A DNA stretch of 63,112 bases, filler included, from Licmophora abbreviata (GCA_900291995.1; 15 parts of 15 records of this genome joined end to end with filler, not necessarily neighbours in it); one strand, 5' to 3'; counted from the first letter of the whole stretch, positions 33,457 to 54,841 are shown. Program-made: numbers and translations. Notes: generated by a model not told the origin, from the sequence alone.

Positions 33457-35834
33457 TTAGTGCGGCAAATACAGACATGCCACCATGGGATCGTGTCTGG
33501 AGGGTGGATTCACAAATTCCGAATTGACATGAATGTATTCTCCATCACCATCTGTGCAGAAGAACTCCGATACGAAAATGTGATCCCACGCTTGCGAGTT
33601 GCCTTGATCAATAACCGAGTATCGTTCGTTCTCTGGAATGTCCTCTGCCAAGTTCCTCAGCGCTGCCTTTTCTAAATTCAACAGCGGCGATACAAACTCA
33701 TTCTCATACATACTTCCAAGCACGATGACCTTGTTCGTATCCGTCACGATGCTGCCACTCCCACGCAACAAGGAGCGGACGCCGTTGCTCTGAGACAACC
33801 GAGCTTCGACGCCAGCATTGATGTCGTTGGACTCTTGCAGTTTCTCAATAGGCTGATTGACACCCGTTATGCTAGCAGAATTCCTCTTGTCTGTGAATTC
33901 GACACTTATGACATCAAAGACTGTGTTGGATGCGCGGTGTCGGAATAGGGCGGCGTAGGGTTCATCGAATGCCGACGCAAAGTTGAGCTGGCTTTGAATA
34001 CCATAGTCCTCCTTCAACTCGATTCGATCCTTGTTGTAGAGAATCGCCGAGTGAGGGCCGTCGTAAACATCACGGAGAATTTTGTATGTGCCGTCTCCGG
34101 GAGTGAACATTTGAATAGCGTAGATCAGCGAACCAATATCGTACGAGTATTCGAGTCCTTGTAAGGCTAGGACATCGGGAAAGCCCATGTTGAAGACAAT
34201 CTGCTCTCCAATCTTGCTATATTCGGTCGACCTCTCAAGGTTGTAAGTTCCAACCGATATTGCGTACGGGTCCGTGCTCTTGCAGCTAGTAGTGGTAGGT
34301 GTGAGTGGACTCGGTTCCACAAATCCAAAGTTTTCGGTGGGTAAAATCTCATAGTTACCATTCTGATCATCGACAACGCCAACGATATTACTCAAGGCAG
34401 CCCCAACACCCACAGCAGGAAAGGCTGCATCAAAGACAGCCTCTTCCATGACCTGGATACGTTCCGGGTTAAAGTCATGTGGACTGACATTGAGCGTACC
34501 GCGTTTACTCAGCCCGGTAGCCAACCGACCGTTGTTGTTAACTACAAACAATGTATCTCCGCCGGAAGTCGAAGAAATAGTCACTGGATCATCAATCTCC
34601 ACCAACATGCCCTCAAGACTTTCCCAGAACATCACTCCCGCCGACATGTCCTCGGTAGGAGGCCTGCGGCCTCCTTCGCCAATGATCACCGGGAAAGGAA
34701 GCGCATTGCTCCTCGAGACGATGACAACAGCATGGGCATCCAGATGAGTCGTCGGCTGATTGAATTCAATTTGGGGACCAGGAATTCTCTCCGAAACCAC
34801 CCCAGTAACCTCGACAAAGTCACCCACATGAGGTGTTGTGATGGAGCGGACTTCGATACCGTCCGATGTCGAATCATCCCCATCACCTTCAACGTCCTGA
34901 AAGAAGAATCGTTGTTCCACTGGTGACACCGCTGTCACGACACCAGGGACGCGAAAGACAGTCTGACCGATGTAGCGTGACGTGAGCTCGCTGAATGGCG
35001 GGTGAAGTGAGAAAGAAATGTAAGCACTAGCTCGAATCAAAAGAAGACATGCAAGCTCATCACGAGGCCTCCTCAACTTACTCTCCCTGAATAGCAAAAA
35101 TGCGATCCACGAGTTCGACTCCCGTGTCCAAGATTGCTGACTCCACCTCCAAGCCACACGATCGTGGAACCGGTTTACCGTTTGGTTTTGTGGTTGGCTC
35201 TGGCGTTGGTTTTTGNNNNNNNNNNNNNNNNNNNNNNNNNNNNNNNNNNNNNNNNNNNNTTAATTAATTAANNNNNNNNNNNNNNNNNNNNNNNNNNNNN
35301 NNNNNNNNNNNNNNNAGGTTTCAACGATGGTTTGGGTGTTGGCTCCGGAGTAGGTTTTAACGTGGGTTGGGGCGTTGGTTTTGGAGTGGGTTTAACCGTT
35401 GGCTGCAATGTTGGTTTCTGAGTAGGTTTTAACGGTGCAGGGGTAGGCTTTGGCGTTGGCTTGGGGGTTGGTTTCGAAGGAGGGGACACAGGCCCGTGTG
35501 GCTGGAATGTGGGCTTCGGTATGCATCAGATGAAATAAGCAGGTCGAGCACAGAGGACAAACGATTTGAAAAACGGGGTCAGTTTCGACTGCATAGGATG
35601 ATGCGGAATGTCAAGCTTCATTCTGCCACTGCTTCTCACCTTTGATGTCGGCTTGCCAGTGGTGCTCATAGACTGAAGCAGAGTCGCCCAATAAGCTTCA
35701 TCCTCCTCTGCGGAAGGGGGCGAAGGAGCAGCCGTTGTAGTTGCCACCGGATGATTCCAGAAAGTTTTTGCGTTTGCCTGATGGGACACTGCGAGGGCCA
35801 GGAGTACAAACAGAGTCGGTCGTTCTCGATACAT
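33457..35834 (-). CDS. Secreted PTPK-stalk plus ExeM/NucH-like OB/EEP protein, copy A (exons 35834-35640, 35513-35082 across the gap, 34990-33457)
   Basis: Signal peptide; KPTPKPT repeats; [65 protein letters not shown] and HVNSEF..SRHDP. Confidence 0.85.
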
Positions 35835-36533
35835 CTTCTCGCTTAAAGATCAGGGGGCATTTCGTCTTTCAGATTGTTGTTGAGAGCTCCTTGGCAGTGT
35901 GGTAGTGTGGCAATCAATGCGAGGATGCGTCGAGCTGGTATGAAAGTCAAGTCGAAGATGAAGAGATTCAACATATTTTGTGATCGCCAAATCCAAACTC
36001 AACGCCCACTGGAAATTCTCCTTAAATAAACCATCTATTCTGGCAGCCGTTGGGCGGAAATACCTCGATGACTGTTCTAAAAATCTAAAAGTCAATTTAT
36101 CGACATCCTCGCAGTTTGATAAATATATCGGAAAATGATACATCAAGCCACGAATTTTGTCCATTTTTGACAGCCAAGAGTCAGTCAAGTCAGAATAAGT
36201 ATCGCGGGGCGGGGGGCGTGTTCAGGCATCACCGACCGGCCCGAGGATTCTGACTCGACTTAAGTCGAGTCGAGTCGAGTCAGTTAGTTACATGCACCTG
36301 CTGGTACCCAAATCATGCCTCGTATGACAATCTGTGTGATTGAGTAGGGAATCGAATCTCAAAGAGATTGTCAAGCACAGAGCATCACCTTCGTTATATT
36401 ATTGTACATGTAAAACAGCAATCGCAACCCAAAGAGGGCATAGAATCTATTGACAGTCGGACCGACAGTACGTACTCCATCTCATCACTAGAGCAGTCGC
36501 TTCAATCCGTACGACACAATTACGCAAATTGAC

Positions 36534-38933
36534 TCACGAAAACTCAATGCAAGCCACCATGGGATCGAAAAATCGTTGATGAACTCCAGAAAACTCCACG
36601 TTCACATGGATGTATTCGGCAAAGGCACGCGGACAGAACTCCTCAGACATCAGAATATAGTCCCACGCCTGCGCATTGCCAGTATTGATGACCGAATAAC
36701 GCTCATAGCTAGGAATCTCAGTTGCCAAGTTCTTCAATCCAGCTCCTTCTAAGTTGAGGATAGGAGAGACCCATTCATTCTCGAAGAAACTACCAAGCAC
36801 AACGACACGGGTAGAATTGGTGACGATCTTGTTGTCTGAGTCGATTTCTCCCAAGATGAGTTCCCGTATACCATTACTCTCTAGGAGACGGTCATCGACG
36901 CCAGTATTTACATCATTGGCTTCTTGGAGCTCTTCGATGGGCTGTGCTACACCCGCAAGGGCAGCATCAAGTGATGTACCAGGACTGAACACGGTATTAA
37001 TGAGATCGAATTGCTCGCCTGTTGGCCCGAACATGAACCGGGCGGCGTAGGGTTTCGAACGGGCAAAGAAAGTGCTAAGTTGGCCTTGAACTTTGTAGTC
37101 CTCTGTTGCGTAGACAGTCCATGGATTGTAGAGAACCGCAAGAACGGGATCATTCAAGTCTTGAAGAATTCTGTACGTTTGTGGACCATCAAGGGCTTCA
37201 ACCGAATCCACCAAGGCTTCAAGGTCGACACCAGAACAGAGTTGTAGTGCAACAATGTCCGGATGTCGCATATTGAATACGAGGTGCGTCGCAAGAGCTT
37301 CATAGTCTCGTGAATACGCAATATTGTACGTAGCAACCCGCAGAGAGTGCTCTCCCTTCTCGCAGCTTGACATGGACGGCTCGATCGCACTCCGCTCCAC
37401 GACACCAAAATACTCAGTAGGAATAATTGAATAGCGCCCATCAAAATGACCGACAACGCCAACAATATTGTCGAGCTTGGTGCCAACGCTAACGTCTGGA
37501 AACTGCAATTTGAAGATGTCCTCTTGATCAATGAGAATGGTCTCTGGGTTGAAGTCATCAGGAGATAAGCTAATCGTGCCTCGCTCGCTGATCCCGGTGG
37601 CGAAAGCTCCACCATCACTGACCACAGTGATCACCCTGCGGTCGAACTTGAAGGGTCGAGTTTTGTCTACAGAAATGGGACTGTCAATCTCCACATACAT
37701 GCCTTCGAGACTTTCCCAGAATTCAATGCCAGCTTGCATATTCATCGTGGGCGGCAAGAGCCCATGCGCACCGATGAGGACCGGCGGAGGAACATCGTTT
37801 CCACTGGAGGTGATGGCGATTGAACCTGCATCCGTTGCAGTAGTAATACGAGTACTCGGCTGCTGAAAAGGTCGGTTCGGAAACTCCAAGACCTCTTCGA
37901 CGATACCGTTCACCGCCACAATATCACCGACATTCACGGGCGGAGTACTATTGGTGAAGACCTGGATTCCGTCTGAAGTAGCTGGATCACCATCACCCCC
38001 ATCAGGGTCTTGCATGAAAAACCTATCACCATTCACGGCTGTAACGACACCAGGCACGCGCAGGACCAGCTGACCGGCAAACGGAGATGTAAGCTCACTG
38101 TCGAGATGTCAAGGCAAGAGTCGTTAGTAGGGCTACGTCAGCCATTTACATGCATACAAGGAGGCACGGCACCCGAAACAAGATCTAAAACGTACAGTCC
38201 CTGAATTTCATAGATTCGATTCGCAAGCACAAGAAGATGCTCAATCGGATCTTCGAGATGCAAGTAGCACACCGAGGTGGGTCTTGGTGTAGGCTTCTGT
38301 GTCGGTTTCAGCGTCGGTTTCGGCGTTGGCTTCGGTGTCGGTTTCGGCGTTGGCTTCTGTGTTGGTTTCGATGTTGGCTTCTGTGTTGGCTTCTGGGTCG
38401 GTTTTGGCGTTGGCTTCGGCGTTGGTTTCGGTGTCGGTTTTGGCGTAGGTTTCTGTGTTGGCTTCAATGATGGTTCCGGTGTCGGTTTTGGCGTTGGTTT
38501 TGGTGTTGGTTTTGGTGTTGGCTTCGGTGTCGGCTTCGGCGTTGGGATCTGTGTTGGCTTGGATGTTGGTTCCGGTGTCGGTTTTGGCGTTGGCTTCGGC
38601 GTCGGCTTCGGTGTTGGTTGCGGTGTCGGTTTTGGCGTCGGCTTCCGTGTCGGCTTCGGAGTCGGCTTCGGCGTTGGTTTGGGAGTCTTCAAAAATGAGA
38701 AAACATCAGCGAGAACGATGGGTGTTAGTATCATAGAGATCAAGAGCAAAGGCGACGCACAGGGGTCCTTCAGTGCAAGCACGCACCATAGGAGTAGGTT
38801 TTGGCGTCGGCACGGTGCCTAGCCGTAGATACCCATCCGAAGGCACAGCAGCAGCTGCGCTGGCCAACAGGGATCCCGACTGCCTCAACAATGCACAGCA
38901 CGCCAGAAGGAGTGAAAAGGAACTACTCATCAT
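36534..38933 (-). CDS. Secreted PTPK-stalk plus ExeM/NucH-like OB/EEP protein, copy B (exons 38933-38787, 38686-38196, 38097-36534)
   Basis: Signal peptide; roughly 135-aa (PTPK/PTQK)n tract; [24 protein letters not shown]; same downstream motifs as copy A. Confidence 0.87.
38276..38686 (-). repeat. 12-nt-unit coding tandem repeat encoding (PTPK/PTQK)n
   Basis: Degenerate CCN ACN CCN AAR units; related tracts at 35316-35480, 41260-41531 and 44820-44916. Confidence 0.95.
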
Positions 38934-39449
38934 GTTCAATCAGGCTCCAATGAACTCGGCAACCGGACAAGCCCAGGTTCAGAACCATCTTTACCTGAGT
39001 TTGTCGTCGATCGCCAAATCGTCCGTTTGACATTCAACGCATGATCCTGGAGCATTAGGATTATTAATAAACGAATAGGTCATTAACGAATGGGTCGCTT
39101 GTTTCGAGGATAGTGATAAGATTTGAAATCCCACTGGGCGTGTTTCACTCCCAGGTCTCTCTCTCTTTGAACGACTCGAGACACCACACTCTCTCTACCT
39201 TCTTACAACGAGAACATGCCAAATAGTCCTCTACTCAGGTCTACCGTCGACAAGCGTAAACATCATCACCAACCATACATCGACTTATTTTATGATAATT
39301 AATAAACAAAAGAATGCAAATCTCAAGATACGTAAGCATGGTCAAGACTGATACTCAAGAAGACGTATGTACCACACAGACGGATCAGGACGTCGTCGGG
39401 GCCTTCACAGCCACTGAAGATTCATTACTGCGAATGCGCAAAGAACAGC

Positions 39450-42282
39450 CTAGGTCAACTGAACGCAGGCAACCATGGGATCGAAAGAACTGCTGGGATT
39501 CAGGAACTCAGAGTTCACATGAATGTATTCGCCATATGTCCCAGGACAGAATTCGCTCGAGACCAGAATGTGGTCCCAGGCCTGAGAATTGCCTCTGTCT
39601 ATCACAGAGTATCTCTCAAAAGAGCGGATTTCAGTAGCTAAATTCTTGAGGCCGGCACCTTCGAGGTTGAGAATAGGCGAGATCCACTCATTTTCGAACA
39701 TGCTCCCCATGACAATGAGACTTTCGGGATCCTCGACGATCGCGTTTGCAACATCGCCTCCCAAGATAAGCTCACGCACCCCGTTACTCTCAAGGAGACG
39801 AGAATTGACACCACCGTTGATGTCGTTGGCTTCTTGAAGCTTTTCAAAAGGTTGGTTGATCCCAAACGATGAAGCGCTTCCGTCCCTGTCCGTGAAAATT
39901 ACATTGATCGCATCGAAGGTCTTCCCTCGTGGCTTGAATTTAAAGACCCCAACCAAAGGTGGGGGCTCATTGAGAAAGAAAGTAGCCTGGACGGCCGCTG
40001 GTATCAATCTCTTCTCAATAAACTCCATGGTCCAGGTGTTGTAGAGAAAAGCCAATTGGTCGCTCCTATCGGCCTCGTAGTTTGTCGGCATACCGGCACC
40101 ATCGGGAAGATTATCGATTGCAGCCAAAAGTTGATTGATATCGAAGCTGCCTTGCGCACCCTGCAAAGCGATCAAGTCAGGGGATCCCATATTTTCCACA
40201 ATGTGTTTGGCAGTTTCCGTGTAGTCCAACGACTCATCAATGTTGTATGTGCCTACCAACATGGTGAATTCACTAAATCCATTTGAACAAGTCGTAGAGG
40301 AAGGCTCCAATGTGCTTGGCGAGACAACACCAAAACTCTGCACAGGGACAATCTCGTTGGGCCGACGACTCGATGCGTCGTCAACAATCCCAACAATATT
40401 GCTGAATTTAGTTCCAACGCCGACTTCGGGAAACGAAAAGAGAAAAACGTTCTCCCCATCAATGTATATTCTCTCGGGATTCCAGTCATGCGGACTCACG
40501 TTCAGTGTTCCACGATCGCTTAGGCCGGTCGCATAATGACCCTCGTCGGCAACAACATTGATGGACGTAGATGTGATTGCCGAGGAGATCGCCATAGGTT
40601 TGTTTATTTCAACAAGCATACCTTCCAAGCTTTCCCAGAACATAATACCCGCCATCAAGCTCTGCGTTGGAGGGCTTCTTCCGTGTACGCCAATCAAAAC
40701 TGGCTCCGGAAGCGAATTACCGCGTGAGTTGATAATGATCAATTCACTTGAAACCTCAATTCTTGTAGTGGACATCTGCTGAAGGATGGAGGAAGGGTTA
40801 TCAGAAACCCATTCGGTAACCAGGCCCCTCATTATGGTAACAAGATCACCGACTTGCACCGAAACCTCGACCCCGCCGAACATGCCGGTCGGTCGATCGT
40901 CGATATCGTCGTTAGACGGGTAGTAAACTTCAATGCCGTCCGACGTCCTGTCGTTCATATCCCCTCCATCCGGTTCTTGCATAATGAATCTAACTCTCGA
41001 AACAGCTGTGACGACACCAGGAACGCGAAAAACCATTTGATTCACAAACGACGAAGTTAATTCACTGTGGCAAAGGTATGAAGTGAAAGCATATAATGCG
41101 TGAGTTTGACAAAAAAGACACCTGATGCAACCGGACCGCAATCAGAGTAGTATCTGTGACAAGAAATGTACTTACTCTCCCTGAATTTCGTAAATACGGT
41201 TGACTAGGTCAATCTGCGGTTCTTCAATTGCAGGATGAATATCCAGATGGCAGACTGTAGTAGGCTTCGGCGTCGGCTTGGGAACAGGCTTTGGCGTTGG
41301 CTTGGGAGTCGGTTCAAAGGTGGGGTGTAGGGTTGGCTCGGGCGTAGGTGTAGGTGTCGGCTTGGGAGTGGGTTTTGGCGTCGGTTTTCCTGTTGGAAAA
41401 GACGTAGGTCGTGCGGTTGGCTTGAGCGTTGGGAGTCTCGTAGGATGCGGGGTCGGTTTTTGGGAAGGCTTCGGCGTAGGACCAGGCGTTGGCCTTGGGC
41501 TTGGGGCGCGGGTCGGTCTGGCAGTTGTTGGCTGTACGACAAGAAAGAGAGAAGAAACAAAGATCAGTCAGTCTCAAGTCGTCCTCACCGAATACAGAGC
41601 AAGCACTGCTGTTGAATCAGAGTTCACTCACCTTTGCAGTCTCGGGCTTACTCGAGGGTTGTAATGAAGGCTTTTGGTTCAGAAGGAGACAAGGATCAGA
41701 CTATATGAGTACCACTATTTTCAAGAAAAAAGACATGTAGCATGTAGCTTCGACACTCACCTCTGATGTTGGGACCGGCTGACAGAATGAAGACACATCA
41801 AGGCGGAAGAAGTTAGACGACGGGACGGACGGAAGAGCAAGCGACTACGGCCTCGATGGTCAAACTCACCTTTGGAGTCGGCTGCATGGCGGAAACGAGT
41901 TTGCGTATACAGAGAACACATAGTTAGAGAAGGAAAGCGAAAGATTTTTTACCACTGCTCCAGAGACCAAACATAGAAAACCGAGCCACGGGCGCAAGAT
42001 CAGTCCAGATTCTCTTTTCTCAGTTCGTCGCAGCGGCTACAGGTACAAAAAAGAGGATGGCTCCACATACTGGGTCGAAGCCGAGATTGTCATTCACGGT
42101 GACAGCGTTTCTCGACCTTCACGTGGTCGTCTACGTACCTTGGGTGTCGGCTGTGGCGCCACGGGTCCAGCGCGGACTCCTCCTGACGGAGGCGGTTCAG
42201 TCGGGACGTCCCAAAAGTCCTTTGCGTTCGCATTCCCTACAATACAGGCCACTGCCAGCAGTGTGGAAACACCGAACCTCAT
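39450..42282 (-). CDS. Secreted PTPK-stalk plus ExeM/NucH-like OB/EEP protein, copy C (exons 42282-42139, 41881-41870, 41778-41761, 41670-41632, 41531-41176, 41064-39450)
   Basis: Signal peptide [20 protein letters not shown]; micro-exons PTPK, PVPTSE and [29 protein letters not shown]; full OB/EEP module. Confidence 0.85.
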
Positions 42283-42836
42283 GACTCGTCTCTGCTCGCT
42301 GTATCTTTCTGTATCTCTCTCTCTCTCTCTCTCTCTGTATCTGTCTCAGGACCGACAACAACGGACAACTGGTGTTGCGGCCAGGCAAAGAGCACCGCGT
42401 CGCTGAAAACTGTGGCGGCGAAATTCCGGCGATTTCTGTGAGTGACGGCGCGCTTCGGACCTCGCTGATACATGTGTGATCGGCGCGCGTACTGACATTT
42501 TATATTTATGTAAAGGGGACTAAGTTATTTACTGATTTCGAGCTGGGGGATGAACAAAGTGTACTTTGCACCAGAGAGAGCCTGTCGGCACGCCGCCACC
42601 GTTCTTGAGTGATATGCTCTTTCTCACGAGCTCACAGCATAGCACTAAATTGGGAAGGAATCGATCGGCATTGGTCTAAGGCATGCCACACCTTGTGCTG
42701 CTCAGGAAGCGCAATGGGGCGGCTAGCTACAGTACGCAGATATCGTCAAACTTGAAATACAGGTAAACATCAACAACTACTCCGAGTACACTGTATGCTA
42801 CATGCTACGCGGTCGCCCGATGTTGAACTCCGGTTT

Positions 42837-45380
42837 TCATGTATACTCTTCAAAAGGGAAGTTGATACAACCAATCATGGGATCAAAACGGGAAACTTGC
42901 TCGAAAAAGTCAACGTTCACATGTATATACTCGCCAAATGTACCTGGACACAGGTCCCTTGAGACCAGGATGTGGTCCCATGCCTGCGAGATACCTTCTC
43001 GAATCACCGAATACCGTTCATTATCAGGAATGTCATCGACCAGGTTCTTCAATCCAGCGCGTTCCAAGTTAAGAAGTGGAGATACCCATTCATTCTCATA
43101 GAATCCCCCTAACACAATAACACTATCCGGATTCTCAACGATGGCATCTGTGGTGCCTCCAAGGATAAGCTCTCGAACTCCATTGCTCTCGAGGAAACGT
43201 TCATTAAGACCAGCATTGATCTCATCGAAGTCTTGCAGTTCCTCAAATGGCTGATTGACACCGAACGATGAAGCAGCTCCACTCTTGGTCGTGAATCTAA
43301 CATTGATGAGATCAAATTGTTTCTTTGCCGGAAGGAACGTAAAAAGAGCCACCTGAGGCACTTGTCCTCTGAAAAAAAGAATNNNNNNNNNNNNNNNNNN
43401 NNNNNNNNNNNNNNNNNNNNNNNNNNTTAATTAATTAANNNNNNNNNNNNNNNNNNNNNNNNNNNNNNNNNNNNNNNNNNNNATTGTTTCTTTGCCGGAA
43501 GGAACGTAAAAAGAGCCACCTGAGGCACTTGTCCTCTGAAAAAAGAATCCACCTGTACTTGCGGACCTTTGTCCATATCGAGCTGTATACGCCAGAAGTT
43601 GTACATGATACCAAAATTACGGTTGCTCCCTCTCAGGATCTTGTAAGCATCTTGGCCGTTGGACTGCCAAGACGGTACATTCCTTATCGCGTCCAGCAGA
43701 AGAGGAAACTCGAACGATGCGCCCAACCCTTGAAACGCCACAATGTCGGGAAATCCCAAGTTGTTCACAACATGGGCGGCAATTGTGTCGTAGTCCAGAG
43801 ATCCAGCGACATTGTAGGTAGCAACTGGCATGGATACTTGCGAGCCTGCACAGGTCGAGCTTGACTCTTGTAGGTCACTTGGCTCGGAAATTCCAAACTG
43901 TATGACAGGAAGAACCTCATAGGGCTCACGTCGCATCACGTCATCAACAACGCCGACGATACTGCTGAACTTGGTCCCAACGTTTGTCTTCGGAAAGAAG
44001 AACCCAAAGACGTCTTCCTCTCCAACGATAATCCTTTCAGGATGCCAGTCGTGAGGACTAACGTTGAGCGTTCCACGCACACTCAGCCCAGTCGCAGTCA
44101 GGCCACTGTCGGGAACCACGTAGATGTTTTCACTGGATGTTGTAGGAGAAATAGCAATCGGATCCTTGATCTCGACAAGCATCCCCTGCAAGCTTTCCCA
44201 GAACCGGATCCCAGCCTCCATACCCTGAGTCGGTGGGCGTCGCCCCTGTACACCAATGACAATTGGGTCCGGAAGAGCGAAGCTACGAGATTCGATAATG
44301 ATTTGATCGGGCGTCGCCACGAGATATGTTGTGGACTGGGCGAAGGGTGGGGTGCCGAGCCATTCATCCACCACAGCTTGTACAACGGTGATTCTGTCGC
44401 CGACTAGCAAGAACACGACAGAACCACTATCCCTTCGCGTACCTAGAGCACGAAAGGTGGTGGGACCAGCATTCTCTGGATCAATGTTGAAGGCTTCAAT
44501 GCCGTCTGACGTTGCATCATTCTTGTCGCCTCCGTCAGGGTCTTGTAAGAAGAATCTGTCATCGAGTGTACCCGCTGCTGTCACAACGGCGGGGACGTTG
44601 AAGACTGTCTGGCCCGCGAAGCGCGACTTGAGTCCACTGTAGTCGTTAAAAGATCATGTAAAGTAGGAAGTGAGTCTCATGGTTCCAGTGGGAGTTGGCG
44701 ACATGCTTGAAAACAAAATGAGAAACAAAAAACTTACTCTCCCTGAATGTCAAAGATTCGATTGACGAGTGGCCCCGGCGCATCAAGCATGTCACCTACT
44801 TCACCACAGTAGTACGGGTAGGATGGTTTTGGAGTCGGTTTTCCCATTCCGGTAGGCCTAGGCGTTGGCTTCGGCAAAGGGGGGCTCGTTGGTGGTTCCG
44901 TTGGAGGAAACTTCGGCTGGAGGCAAACATGACGCAAGCACAAGATCAAACACAGTTGATTGTTAGCCCACGAGTCAGAACTAAGCATTTCGTCATAGAC
45001 GTTTCTAGATCATTGTTAACTCACCTTGGGAGTCGGCTGAGTAATGAAGAAGAGAGCGGGCATGTGAAACAAACAAATGAGCGAGTGAGCAGGGCGAACG
45101 CAAGTGAACTTATCATGTCATCGATTCGGCTGTGGACTCACAACAGGTGTTGGCTGTAAGATACGTCAGAGAGGAAACAAAAATAGGAATGTGAGCACAG
45201 GTTTTCAGTTACACGATCGCACATGCATCCTCAGCGACGTACATGTGTCGTTGGGGGCGGCGGAACTGTGCCAGCACGAGGGCCCGTCGGAGTTTGGGTC
45301 GACGTATCCCAGAATTCCTTTCCACTCGCGCGTCCCATAAGCAGAACCACCGCGATCAATGCAGAAGTCGAAAATCTCAT
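42837..45380 (-). CDS. Secreted PTPK-stalk plus ExeM/NucH-like OB/EEP protein, copy D (exons 45380-45243, 45153-45142, 45036-45025, 44916-44738, 44636-42837 across overlapping contigs)
   Basis: Signal peptide MRFSTSALIAVVLLMGRASG; micro-exons PTPV and PTPK; IFDIQG|DGLKSRFAGQ. The contigs flanking linker 43383-43482 overlap by about 66 nt. Confidence 0.85.
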
Positions 45381-45814: not shown

Positions 45815-46853
<1,039 letters not shown>

Positions 46854-48606: not shown

Positions 48607-49196
48607 CCTAACAACATTCGTTTTCAAAAGAAGGGAAGGCAGTCCACAGTGGTCACTCTTGAGGCTTGTGTGATGCTCTTCGTCGCACGTATCATGTGAC
48701 TATTCATCTGAAATCGTCGTGCTTTCGTTCGTCATCTTGAGTTTTGCGACTTGAACTCCACTCACTAACTCATTCGGTTCGAGTCACGTTCTAAAGTACC
48801 GGCAAGTCAGGTCACGGATGCGACAATGTCTGACCACGCTCCTCAGCCACGTCAGCAAAAACGGAGTTGACAGATTTGCGCGGGAAATTGTGCGAGCGCG
48901 CCAGGCATTGTCCGTTCAAATTTCAAAAAATTCCCGAAAGCATCTTCAGTCTCGTAGCATCGATCCGGCGTTGGCCGCCACATCACAACTTTGTAAACTT
49001 TTGTGGTCGCGCCTGGAAGGTCGAAACGAACGCACGACGGAGCATCATCCAAAGAGATTTTGAATTCATCGGCTCCGACTGACACCATCGCAAGGGATGA
49101 CAACAACAATAACAAGTTGACACCAAAGCGCACGATAGATAGATAGATAGAAAGTGACTCTACTTGCTGGTTGAACAGTCACGTTCAGAAAGAGCC

Positions 49197-49733
49197 ATGA
49201 TGATGTTTCAAAGTGTCTCCATTCTCTTGCTCGCTTCCTGCGTGTCAGGTCAGCCATCGGCACCTTCCGCACCGTTGTCGCCTTCTGCACCATTCTCACC
49301 TTCCGCACCTTCCTCGCCTTCCGCACCGTTGTCCCCTTCTGCACCTTTCTCACCTTCCGCACCCTCGGTTGGTTCCCCAACCGCAACAGCTCCAAGTGAC
49401 GAGCCCCCAGCCGCATCACCAAACACGGCGCCCAACCAAGCTCCCGCTTCCCCTGCCGCCCCGACTGGCGGCCCCCCAGTCGCGTTACCAACAGTGACGG
49501 CTCCAGCCGCTGCTCCCACAGCCCCGAATTCTGGCATGGTACAACCCACAATGCGACCTGCTGGTACACCGACGGAAAGTCCTGTGACGCCTCCAGATTC
49601 TCCAACAGAAATACTGACTACTTTTCCTCCGGTGGCTCCTCCCCCAACGAGCGACGCTTCGAGCAGAGGCCTTCTACTTGCCGTCCTCTGCCTTGTTGTT
49701 GTTGTTGTTGTTGGTGCAGCTGAAGTGTACTAG
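49197..49733 (+). CDS. Pro/Ala/Ser/Thr-rich secreted, probably GPI-anchored, arabinogalactan-protein-like protein
   Basis: Signal peptide; 18-nt (xSPSAP) repeats; C-terminal SDASS followed by a hydrophobic tail. Confidence 0.8.
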   Translation: MMMFQSVSILLLASCVSGQPSAPSAPLSPSAPFSPSAPSSPSAPLSPSAPFSPSAPSVGSPTATAPSDEPPAASPNTAPNQAPASPAAPTGGPPVALPTVTAPAAAPTAPNSGMVQPTMRPAGTPTESPVTPPDSPTEILTTFPPVAPPPTSDASSRGLLLAVLCLVVVVVVGAAEVY

Positions 49734-52727: not shown

Positions 52728-54841
52728 CAAGCCAAGTTTTCGGGCAAGTCATGTTGCGAATTTGCACGGAACAAGGCAAGATCCGCCTGCGTCAACTTGA
52801 TCTCAAACATGCGCATCATACCATCTCTCACCTCGTCAAGGGAGATCGTTCCAGAATCATCGATGTCGAACTCCTCGTAAAGCTCGGCCGGGTCCCAATC
52901 GCTGACGCTCATTTTCCTTCCGAGCTCGGCCCGGCGGAAGGCGTTCGAAGCAAATCGTTTCACATCGCGGTAATATGCTCTCTCGATAACTTTGATTTCC
53001 TCTGCAAACTGGTTCTCGAGGCCCTTTCGGATGTCGAAGCCGTCGTAGTCGACAATCATTTCAATCTTTCCCTTCTCCTTGACCAGAGGATCAAGCACAC
53101 CCTTTAAGCCGTTCACCATCCACTTGATATCGTCTTCTCCGTTGATGGTGATGCCAAAGAGCTCCAAGAACATGGTGTGGTCTCTTTCATGGTACCGGAA
53201 GCGTTCGGTCAGCGAGCCGAAGAGCTCGGATCGCATATTCATTCTATCATCGACGAATATGCGAGGATCCATCTTCTTGAGGTCCGGAGAGACGACTGGG
53301 GTAAAATCCATGTGATCCAGAATGTCCTTCTGAAGGTCCACTCCGGGAGCGATTTCAATCAATTCCAAGACATCATGTTTAGCAGTGCGACGAAACACGG
53401 CCCGTTCAGTGACGTAGCAAACTTTCTGTCCCCGCCTGACGGCTTCGTCTCCACTAAACGTCTTTTCAAACACGTCCGCAACAAACTTCTTGACCTTCCC
53501 TTCGCTCTTTATGCTGAGCTGGCCATCACCGGGAATGGAGACTTCAAGACCTTTAGCCGTGAACGGAGCCATGAAGCAAATATCGCTGGTCGACTGGGAT
53601 ATATCGATAAAACCTCCTGGTCCCGTCAAGCGATTCTTTGACATACGAGACACGTTGACATCTCCATTCTTGGAAATTTGGGCCGCGCCGAGGAAGCAAC
53701 GGTCAAGTCCCCCGCCATCATAAAAATCAAACATCTGATTCATTTCCACCAACGCGGACGCGTTGTAGGATGGCCCAAAGCTCTTGCCAGAAGCTGGAAG
53801 TCCTCCAAAGACACCCGGTTCCGTCGAAAGTGTCACATAGTCCAACATGCCTTCCTCAGCAGCGACACTGGCGACTCCTTCCGGCAAGCCGATCCCCAAG
53901 TTAACAATCGAGTTGGGCCTTAGCTTGAAGGCTGCCCTACGGGCGATGAGCTTTCGAATGTCTAAGGGCATTTTAGGGATCTCATCTGACGGAGATTTAA
54001 TTTCGCCAGTTAGGGCAGGATTGTGAGTTTCTTCAAAGCTCATAGGATGAAGTGTGCCATGGTCTGCAGGGTCTTCGACGACCACCACGCAGTCCACGAG
54101 TGGACCTGGAACGACAATGTTCTTGGAGCTCAACGATCCGTTTGCTGCCAGCCGCTTCACCTGAGCAATGACAACACCACCGCTGTTTCGCGCCGCTGCA
54201 GCAATAATCTTTTGGTCGCACAGCAGCGATTCCTCCTCGGCAGTTATGTTGCCCTGCGCATCCGCGGTCGTACCACGGATAATGGCAACATTGACGGGTA
54301 ACGCTTTGTACATGAGCTGATCTTGTCCTTCAATTTGAATTCGCGAAATTAGCTTTTCATGGAGTGTGCTCTTCCTGGCTGCTTCGTTTGCTGCTCCTCC
54401 GGATATGCACGGATCGACATATGTACCGATGCCGACATCGGTGATGTGCCCAGGTGAGTGCGTGGACTGCGCACGGATCATCCGAGATACGGACCCCAAT
54501 GGGAGCGTCCAAGCCTCGACTTGCTCAGTCAGCGCTAGATCAGCCACCTTGGGTACCTGCCCATAGTGCGAGCCAATCGTTCTTCGAAGCATGGGCGGTG
54601 CACCTTCGTTGGTCTTGGCCAGGTGATTTAGCCCCCGTGCGTCCCAGTCGCCGGGTCCACCCCCAAATAGAAGAGTCAGATTACTCGGACTGCCCGTTTC
54701 TTCATATCGTTCTCCGAGTGCCTTCAAGACAGCCTCTGGCACTCCCTGACAGACAAACCCAGAAGCGCAAACGGTATCGCCGTTGCGAATCAACGACACG
54801 GCATCGGTGGAACTTATCACTTTCTGCCGGATGCGTTCGGG
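52728..54841 (-). CDS. Family I acyl-CoA:acetate/propionate CoA-transferase (YdiF/Pct-like) with C-terminal extension and EF-hand; truncated at both ends
   Basis: SGFVCQGVPE, GIGTYVDP, IIRGTTADAQGN, VNLGIGLPEGV, STEPG (catalytic Glu), FDFYDGGGLD, GPGGFIDISQ and YVTERAVF; EF-hand loop DIDDSGTISLDE. Confidence 0.92.

Follow-up and report, generated by a model that had tools for sequence, protein, structure and literature searches.

The micro-exon genes (MEGs) of Schistosoma mansoni are described as carrying exons of 3-81 bp and introns of up to 5 kb (bioRxiv 10.1101/2023.06.21.545858). Here we describe a further instance of an already known gene architecture in a 63,112-nucleotide (nt) stretch of DNA from Licmophora abbreviata (GCA_900291995.1), referred to as a whole as the window. 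In it, five segments of 12 to 39 nt lie behind exon 1 and ahead of the long exon in two genes, copies C and D of a four-copy array (A-D) that is predicted to encode secreted, divergent ExeM/NucH-like endonuclease/exonuclease/phosphatase (EEP) nucleases of a pennate-type diatom. The C/D region is a genuine, neatly organised sequence feature. As in the MEGs, to the extent that the source describes them, symmetric micro-exons with lengths divisible by three stand between conventional end exons in genes for secreted proteins (predicted to be so for C and D). In contrast, the coding sequence of those genes is mostly micro-exons and their introns are long, and neither of these marks of a schistosome-type MEG is found here: micro-exons account for 23 of 727 codons in C and for 8 codons in D, and the introns between them measure 89-257 nt. 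Moreover, the C and D products, unlike those of the MEGs, are enzymes with a large ordinary exon, and there is no sequence relationship to the MEGs, splice variants of which are documented.

The PEVK region of titin, whose exons exceed 12 nt, is the closest functional analogy for the linker that C and D encode. Like this linker, PEVK is described as rich in proline and lysine, as built from short repetitive exons and as missed by standard annotation (PMC6469411). However, it forms the extensible linker of an animal muscle protein, whereas C and D encode nucleases; in addition, the source describes length variation of PEVK through alternative splicing, which for the C/D linker would be conjecture.

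For the origin of such exons, intron gain by tandem genomic duplication is the closest known mechanism. In the account of Hellsten et al. 2011 (PMC3265369), a duplicated segment brings ready-made splice sites in one step, and a case of intron gain by tandem duplication is described in a potato RdRp gene (PMC4974935). The likeness lies in the boundaries, since the end of exon 1 with its donor resembles a micro-exon with its donor. In the cases described there, however, it is exon sequence that is duplicated to give a new intron, whereas here an existing intron and a repeat unit would have been duplicated to give a new micro-exon, and such copies of an intron body can no longer be recognised in C and D. 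Finally, all four copies share homology with bacterial ExeM/NucH nucleases in their catalytic part; unlike these, the diatom copies carry a predicted eukaryotic signal-peptide exon, a linker rich in proline, threonine and lysine (P/T/K) and spliceosomal introns. By analogy with Phaeodactylum tricornutum, for which 0.7 introns per gene on average, 53% of genes without introns and a mean intron length of 142 bp are reported (PMC5859163), it was fair of an earlier, sequence-only reading of this stretch to call the diatom intron-poor, and copies C (five introns) and D (four introns) stand out.

Splice signals and probable inclusion of the micro-exons

We consider it likely that the segments of 12, 18 and 39 nt in C (C1, C2 and C3) and the two of 12 nt in D (D1 and D2; Table 1) are real spliceosomal micro-exons and that the main form of the transcripts includes them. 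They very probably encode the first part of the P/T/K-rich linker, or stalk, that joins the catalytic domain to the putative signal-peptide exon. A full-text literature search (micro-exon or microexon combined with diatom) found no description of diatom micro-exons. The sequence-only reading had placed each of these five segments between an AG and a GTGAGT, and we recovered its positions, sequences and translations unchanged on the minus strand. Its statement that the lengths are multiples of three with phase-0 boundaries is borne out by coordinate extraction together with the exon 1 lengths: exon 1 measures 144 nt in C and 138 nt in D, and the segments add multiples of three, thus all micro-exon boundaries are in phase 0. 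It was also correct that some micro-exons, namely C1 and D2, are exactly one PTPK unit and that copies A and B hold their repeats in long exons; in each of the two, a single intron separates exon 1 from one long repeat exon. Our analysis likewise supports its view that the micro-exons are not visible to callers of open reading frames (ORFs).

Several properties of the two stalks separate them from chance. The stretches that separate exon 1 from the long exon in C and D total 933 nt and hold five GTGAGT on the coding strand, whereas the remainder of the window predicts 0.34 (Poisson P = 2.7e-5). All five are micro-exon donors; the acceptors are CAG (four) and AAG (one). The tract without AG before each micro-exon acceptor is 28-74 nt long, compared with a window median of 9 nt and with 33-79 nt in control introns; the joint frequency of the five tracts is 1.4e-8, and only 1.5-2.2% of the AGs in the window reach 64-74 nt. 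Six of the seven stalk introns fall within 89-108 nt (the first intron of C is the longer one), close to the 91-126 nt of six control introns of the same family. The last 25 nt of the stalk introns have a pyrimidine content of 0.60-0.84, and six of the seven carry a branch-like CTRAY motif 16-50 nt from the 3' end. All seven contain in-frame stops; thus, the region must be spliced. The coding content also agrees, as the first codon is proline in all five micro-exons and their coding resembles the neighbouring repeats. In addition, the island that runs from CAG through GTGAGTT around C1 and D2 is identical at 21 of 22 positions, the single difference being synonymous (CCA versus CCC), while the intron bodies cannot be aligned with one another (78 pairs compared; the lowest shuffle p, 0.005, does not hold up against 78 tests) and the proteins have diverged strongly. 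Each flanking intron is complete and has the size usual in the family; it would most likely be removed as its own unit, which would make inclusion of the micro-exons the default, constitutive outcome. One sequencing run, of presumed kind and sharing 9% of the sequence words, gave five short contig pieces over 39400-43380, with no joints and with none of the pieces covering 41528-42724.

These properties also bear on the possibility that the segments are unused pseudo-exons, relics or decoys inside one long intron, which we regard as unlikely. Skipping all of them would require introns of 607 nt in C and 326 nt in D. The frame would be retained, an intron as long as 257 nt is already present in C, and exons of 12 nt are hard to recognise in many organisms, all of which would suit such an outcome. 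However, relics would not be expected to retain five perfect GTGAGT donors, a long AG-free tract before each acceptor, open frames, lengths divisible by three and proline-rich coding, and the paralogs share the 21/22 island although the surrounding introns have diverged beyond alignment.

The symmetry of the micro-exons raises another alternative, in which they would be cassette exons skipped under regulation to give stalk-length isoforms, up to eight in C and four in D. As each of the five is symmetric (phase 0-0), no combination would break the frame; furthermore, the titin PEVK source offers a precedent of a repeat linker made from short, alternatively spliced exons (PMC6469411), and exon skipping is reported in P. 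tricornutum, where a nitrogen-starvation series gave it in 1099 genes (PMC5859163). We nevertheless find regulated skipping distinctly unlikely: the few codons concerned would change the linker by only about a tenth to a sixth, the complete, short, family-sized flanking introns with strong sites favour inclusion, and the paralogs A and B do with one long exon.

Several points weigh against the inclusion of all five micro-exons as we propose it. A loose pattern, defined as AG, 9-45 nt open in frame and GTGAGT with a modestly pyrimidine-rich upstream region, is common: it occurs 15 times in the window, where a set of 100 simulated windows gives 6.5 +/- 3.0 (maximum 17). Eight of these occurrences lie outside the two stalks and fit this null, and none of them starts with proline; since the pattern is common, the weight of the argument lies on clustering, spacing, AG-free tracts and coding content. 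Every competing splice pattern preserves the frame, and thus the reading frame cannot choose among them. The 5' end of C3 is ambiguous, as in-frame acceptors give 39, 15 or 9 nt, and intron 2 of D lacks a CTRAY motif. Gene conversion, for which the long exons offer many identical repeat units, could explain the identity of C1 and D2, so that it need not reflect selection on the micro-exon as such; one of these units (41312-41301) is identical to D2 at 12 of 12 positions. Finally, the sequence is a draft assembly with at least one apparent one-base frameshift in a conserved gene, and single-base details need caution.

Table 1. Coordinates of the exons and introns of nuclease copies A to D, counted from the first letter of the window
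Feature	Position	Strand	Length and signals
C exon 1	42139..42282	-	144 nt; ATG, hydrophobic N-terminus, KDFWD motif; ends ...PQPTPK, then GTACGT
C intron 1	41882..42138	-	257 nt; GTACGT...CAG; CTAAC 46 nt from end; 71 nt AG-free before acceptor
Micro-exon C1	41870..41881	-	12 nt; PTPK; between ...catgcag and gtgagttt
C intron 2	41779..41869	-	91 nt; GTGAGT...CAG; CTAAC 38 nt from end; in-frame stops
Micro-exon C2	41761..41778	-	18 nt; PVPTSE; between ...ctgtcag and gtgagtgt
C intron 3	41671..41760	-	90 nt; GTGAGT...AAG; CTGAT 29 nt from end; in-frame stop
Micro-exon C3	41632..41670	-	39 nt; 13 codons; between ...ccaaaag and gtgagtga
C intron 4	41532..41631	-	100 nt; GTGAGT...CAG; CTGAC 40 nt from end
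C long repeat exon	41176..41531	-	356 nt; P/T/K-rich linker; ends ...NRIYEIQG
C phase-2 intron	41065..41175	-	111 nt; GTAAGT...CAG
C catalytic exon	39450..41064	-	predicted divergent ExeM/NucH-like EEP nuclease
D exon 1	45243..45380	-	138 nt; ends ...PPPTTH, then GTACGT
D intron 1	45154..45242	-	89 nt; GTACGT...CAG; CTGAC 16 nt from end
Micro-exon D1	45142..45153	-	12 nt; PTPV; between ...cttacag and gtgagtcc
D intron 2	45037..45141	-	105 nt; GTGAGT...CAG; CTCAC and CTCAT present; in-frame stop
Micro-exon D2	45025..45036	-	12 nt; PTPK; between ...tactcag and gtgagtta
D intron 3	44917..45024	-	108 nt; GTGAGT...CAG; CTAAC 50 nt from end
D short linker exon	44738..44916	-	179 nt; ends ...NRIFDIQG
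D phase-2 intron	44637..44737	-	
D catalytic exon	42837..44636	-	interrupted by assembly linker 43383-43482
Copy A, whole	33457..35834	-	
A exon 1	35640..35834	-	195 nt
A intron 1	35514..35639	-	GTGAGA...AAG
A repeat exon	35082..35513	-	broken by assembly linker 35216-35315
A phase-2 intron	34991..35081	-	followed by catalytic exon
Copy B, whole	36534..38933	-	
B exon 1	38787..38933	-	147 nt
B intron 1	38687..38786	-	GTGCGT...AAG
B repeat exon	38196..38686	-	491 nt; single long repeat exon
B phase-2 intron	38098..38195	-	followed by catalytic exon

The nuclease array, its ancestry and its surroundings

The four copies are tandem paralogs on the minus strand (33457-45380), and their large 3' exons are 46-49% identical in pairwise comparison. 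Exon 1 of each copy encodes a hydrophobic N-terminus, which by eye consists of a hydrophobic stretch followed by small residues, and ends within the first units of the P/T/K-rich linker; in all four, intron 1 lies between repeat units and is in phase 0. A K[DET]FW[DN] motif comes right after the hydrophobic N-terminus in C (42222), D (45320) and A (35768), all on the minus strand, and is missing from B. The linker exon of B consists of a 12-nt unit in 31.4 copies according to Tandem Repeats Finder (TRF). Micro-exons are absent from B, and none was seen in A, where the repeat exon is broken by an assembly linker. All four copies share a phase-2 intron of 91-111 nt at the same position, after IQG (IQG/ELTS); the ORFs of two metagenomic relatives, P0001 and P0002, run uninterrupted through this position.

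With the catalytic part of A-D, 174 homologous proteins were found at E <= 0.001, the named ones being bacterial, and the Pfam families PF03372 and PF19580 are precomputed for the matched homologs. The NCBIfam model NF033681 (ExeM/NucH) matches copy C with E = 7e-9 and 35 bits, copy B with E = 6e-19 and 68 bits and P0001 with 21 bits, all far below its curated cut-off of 300 bits, and a profile of the family matches the PDB entries 9sf9 and 9sf8 with E = 8e-33. A Pfam scan of the C and B proteins returned no family. Among 1795 representatives at E <= 0.001 (1.84 billion searched), only four are at least 45% identical, namely P0001, P0002 and two fragments; the representatives beyond these four diatom-like proteins are 33-43% identical. 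A metagenome scan for relatives gave 49 loci, all 24-34% identical and bacterial-like, and no annotated or transcript-derived protein of the source organism was found, the best matches being 48% and 51% identical. In a tree of 21 rows, A-D, P0001 and P0002 form one clade with 100/100 support and a long stem, and the end branches of the catalytic-domain tree measure 0.7-0.9 changes per site.

Because all relatives outside this small clade are of bacterial type, the data suggest that the nuclease gene was acquired from bacteria and that the signal-peptide exon, the linker and the introns were gained later. The micro-exons, very probably real ones, sit in a diatom gene of bacterial ancestry on this view. 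Since the catalytic domain has only bacterial-type relatives outside the diatom-like clade, all introns of the family, those around the micro-exons included, are likely to be younger than the arrival of the gene.

The window is a draft assembly of 15 contigs, with 14 linkers of the form N44-TTAATTAATTAA-N44 between them. Duplicated flanks occur at only one of the 14, the linker in the catalytic exon of copy D, where the right flank repeats about 67 nt of the left end. The 5' leader of copy C holds a (GA)n microsatellite (42299-42351, minus strand) immediately before the ATG. Elsewhere in the window, diatoms rank first among the named matches to a CoA-transferase ORF of 704 residues (52728-54841, minus strand), with identities of 74% for Phaeodactylum tricornutum (over 70% of the query), 66% for Seminavis robusta and about 65% for Nitzschia and Bacillariaceae; its best unnamed match is 85% identical. 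These matches mark the source as diatom-like, probably a raphid pennate. A gene for a Dim1/KsgA-like rRNA dimethyltransferase (45815-46853) shows a one-base frame change at 46360-46390 (plus strand), within a conserved stretch and without intron signals, which is either an assembly indel or the mark of a pseudogene. Finally, the product of a single-exon ORF (49158-49733, plus strand) has the look of a mucin-like surface protein: its N-terminus is hydrophobic, as is a stretch near the C-terminus, and it carries SAPSAP/LSPSAP repeats. The ORF contains an 18/36-nt tandem repeat (49261-49363) and no micro-exons.

Origin and meaning of the micro-exons

The micro-exons probably arose by duplication of the junction between a repeat unit and the first intron. 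One PTPK unit together with intron 1 would have been duplicated, for example by unequal crossing-over between the units that flank this intron, and the duplication of a unit with its intron would automatically leave a one-unit, phase-0 exon between two introns. The phase-0 symmetry would then be a by-product of this origin and of selection against frameshifts, not a regulatory device. The boundaries are consistent with such a history. The end of C exon 1 (CAG CCG ACA CCC AAG, followed by GT) is 88% identical over 17 nt to C1 with its acceptor CAG and 94% identical over 17 nt to D2 with its acceptor CAG, although the matches of exon 1 ends to C1 and D2 are short and their E-values weak (0.018-0.36). 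Similarly, C1 plus donor is 89% identical over 19 nt to the last bases of A exon 1 plus donor. The donors also bear on this origin, as GTGAGT follows all five micro-exons but is used at 0 of the 8 remaining donor sites of the family (Fisher p = 0.0008).

Three points count against this origin, or at any rate do not favour it. The intron bodies retain no trace of duplication, either in the 78 pairs or as copies elsewhere in the window; neither C2 nor C3 corresponds to a single repeat unit; and the order in which A-D were duplicated is not resolved in the 21-row tree, so that a common origin of C1 and D2 is not demonstrated. Separately, an alignment with MAFFT had suggested a dead, D1-like micro-exon within the 257-nt intron of C; this candidate was rejected, as its local score resembles that of shuffled sequences (p = 0.5-0.8).

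Instead of a duplicated junction, mobile introner-like insertions or the intronisation of repeat codons could be invoked. The GTGAGT donor common to all five new sites and the uniform size of the introns would speak for such events. However, the intron bodies show no mutual similarity, the 63-kb window holds no copies of them elsewhere (only matches of 12-26 nt, E >= 0.15), and the repeat arrays of A and B are unmatched by any intron (blastn). On the evidence of these 63 kb, we hold this alternative to be highly improbable and favour the duplication of the junction between a repeat unit and intron 1.

The functional consequence of the micro-exons for the enzyme is probably slight. If they are real in RNA, they would rank with the shortest exons reported from a diatom, and gene callers would drop parts of repeat linkers in such genomes. 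Moreover, as the introns of the family are likely younger than the arrival of the gene, the locus would offer a compact case for the birth of introns and micro-exons within repeats. It is tempting, if quite improbable, to speculate further that combinatorial use of cassettes, with up to eight forms of C and four of D, is joined to a birth of the micro-exons after bacterial gene transfer. If this were true, the diatom would give a secreted nuclease of horizontal origin a variable N-terminal linker, as schistosomes vary the proteins of their micro-exon genes, and the family would be a dated natural example of micro-exon birth through duplication of a junction between a repeat unit and an intron.

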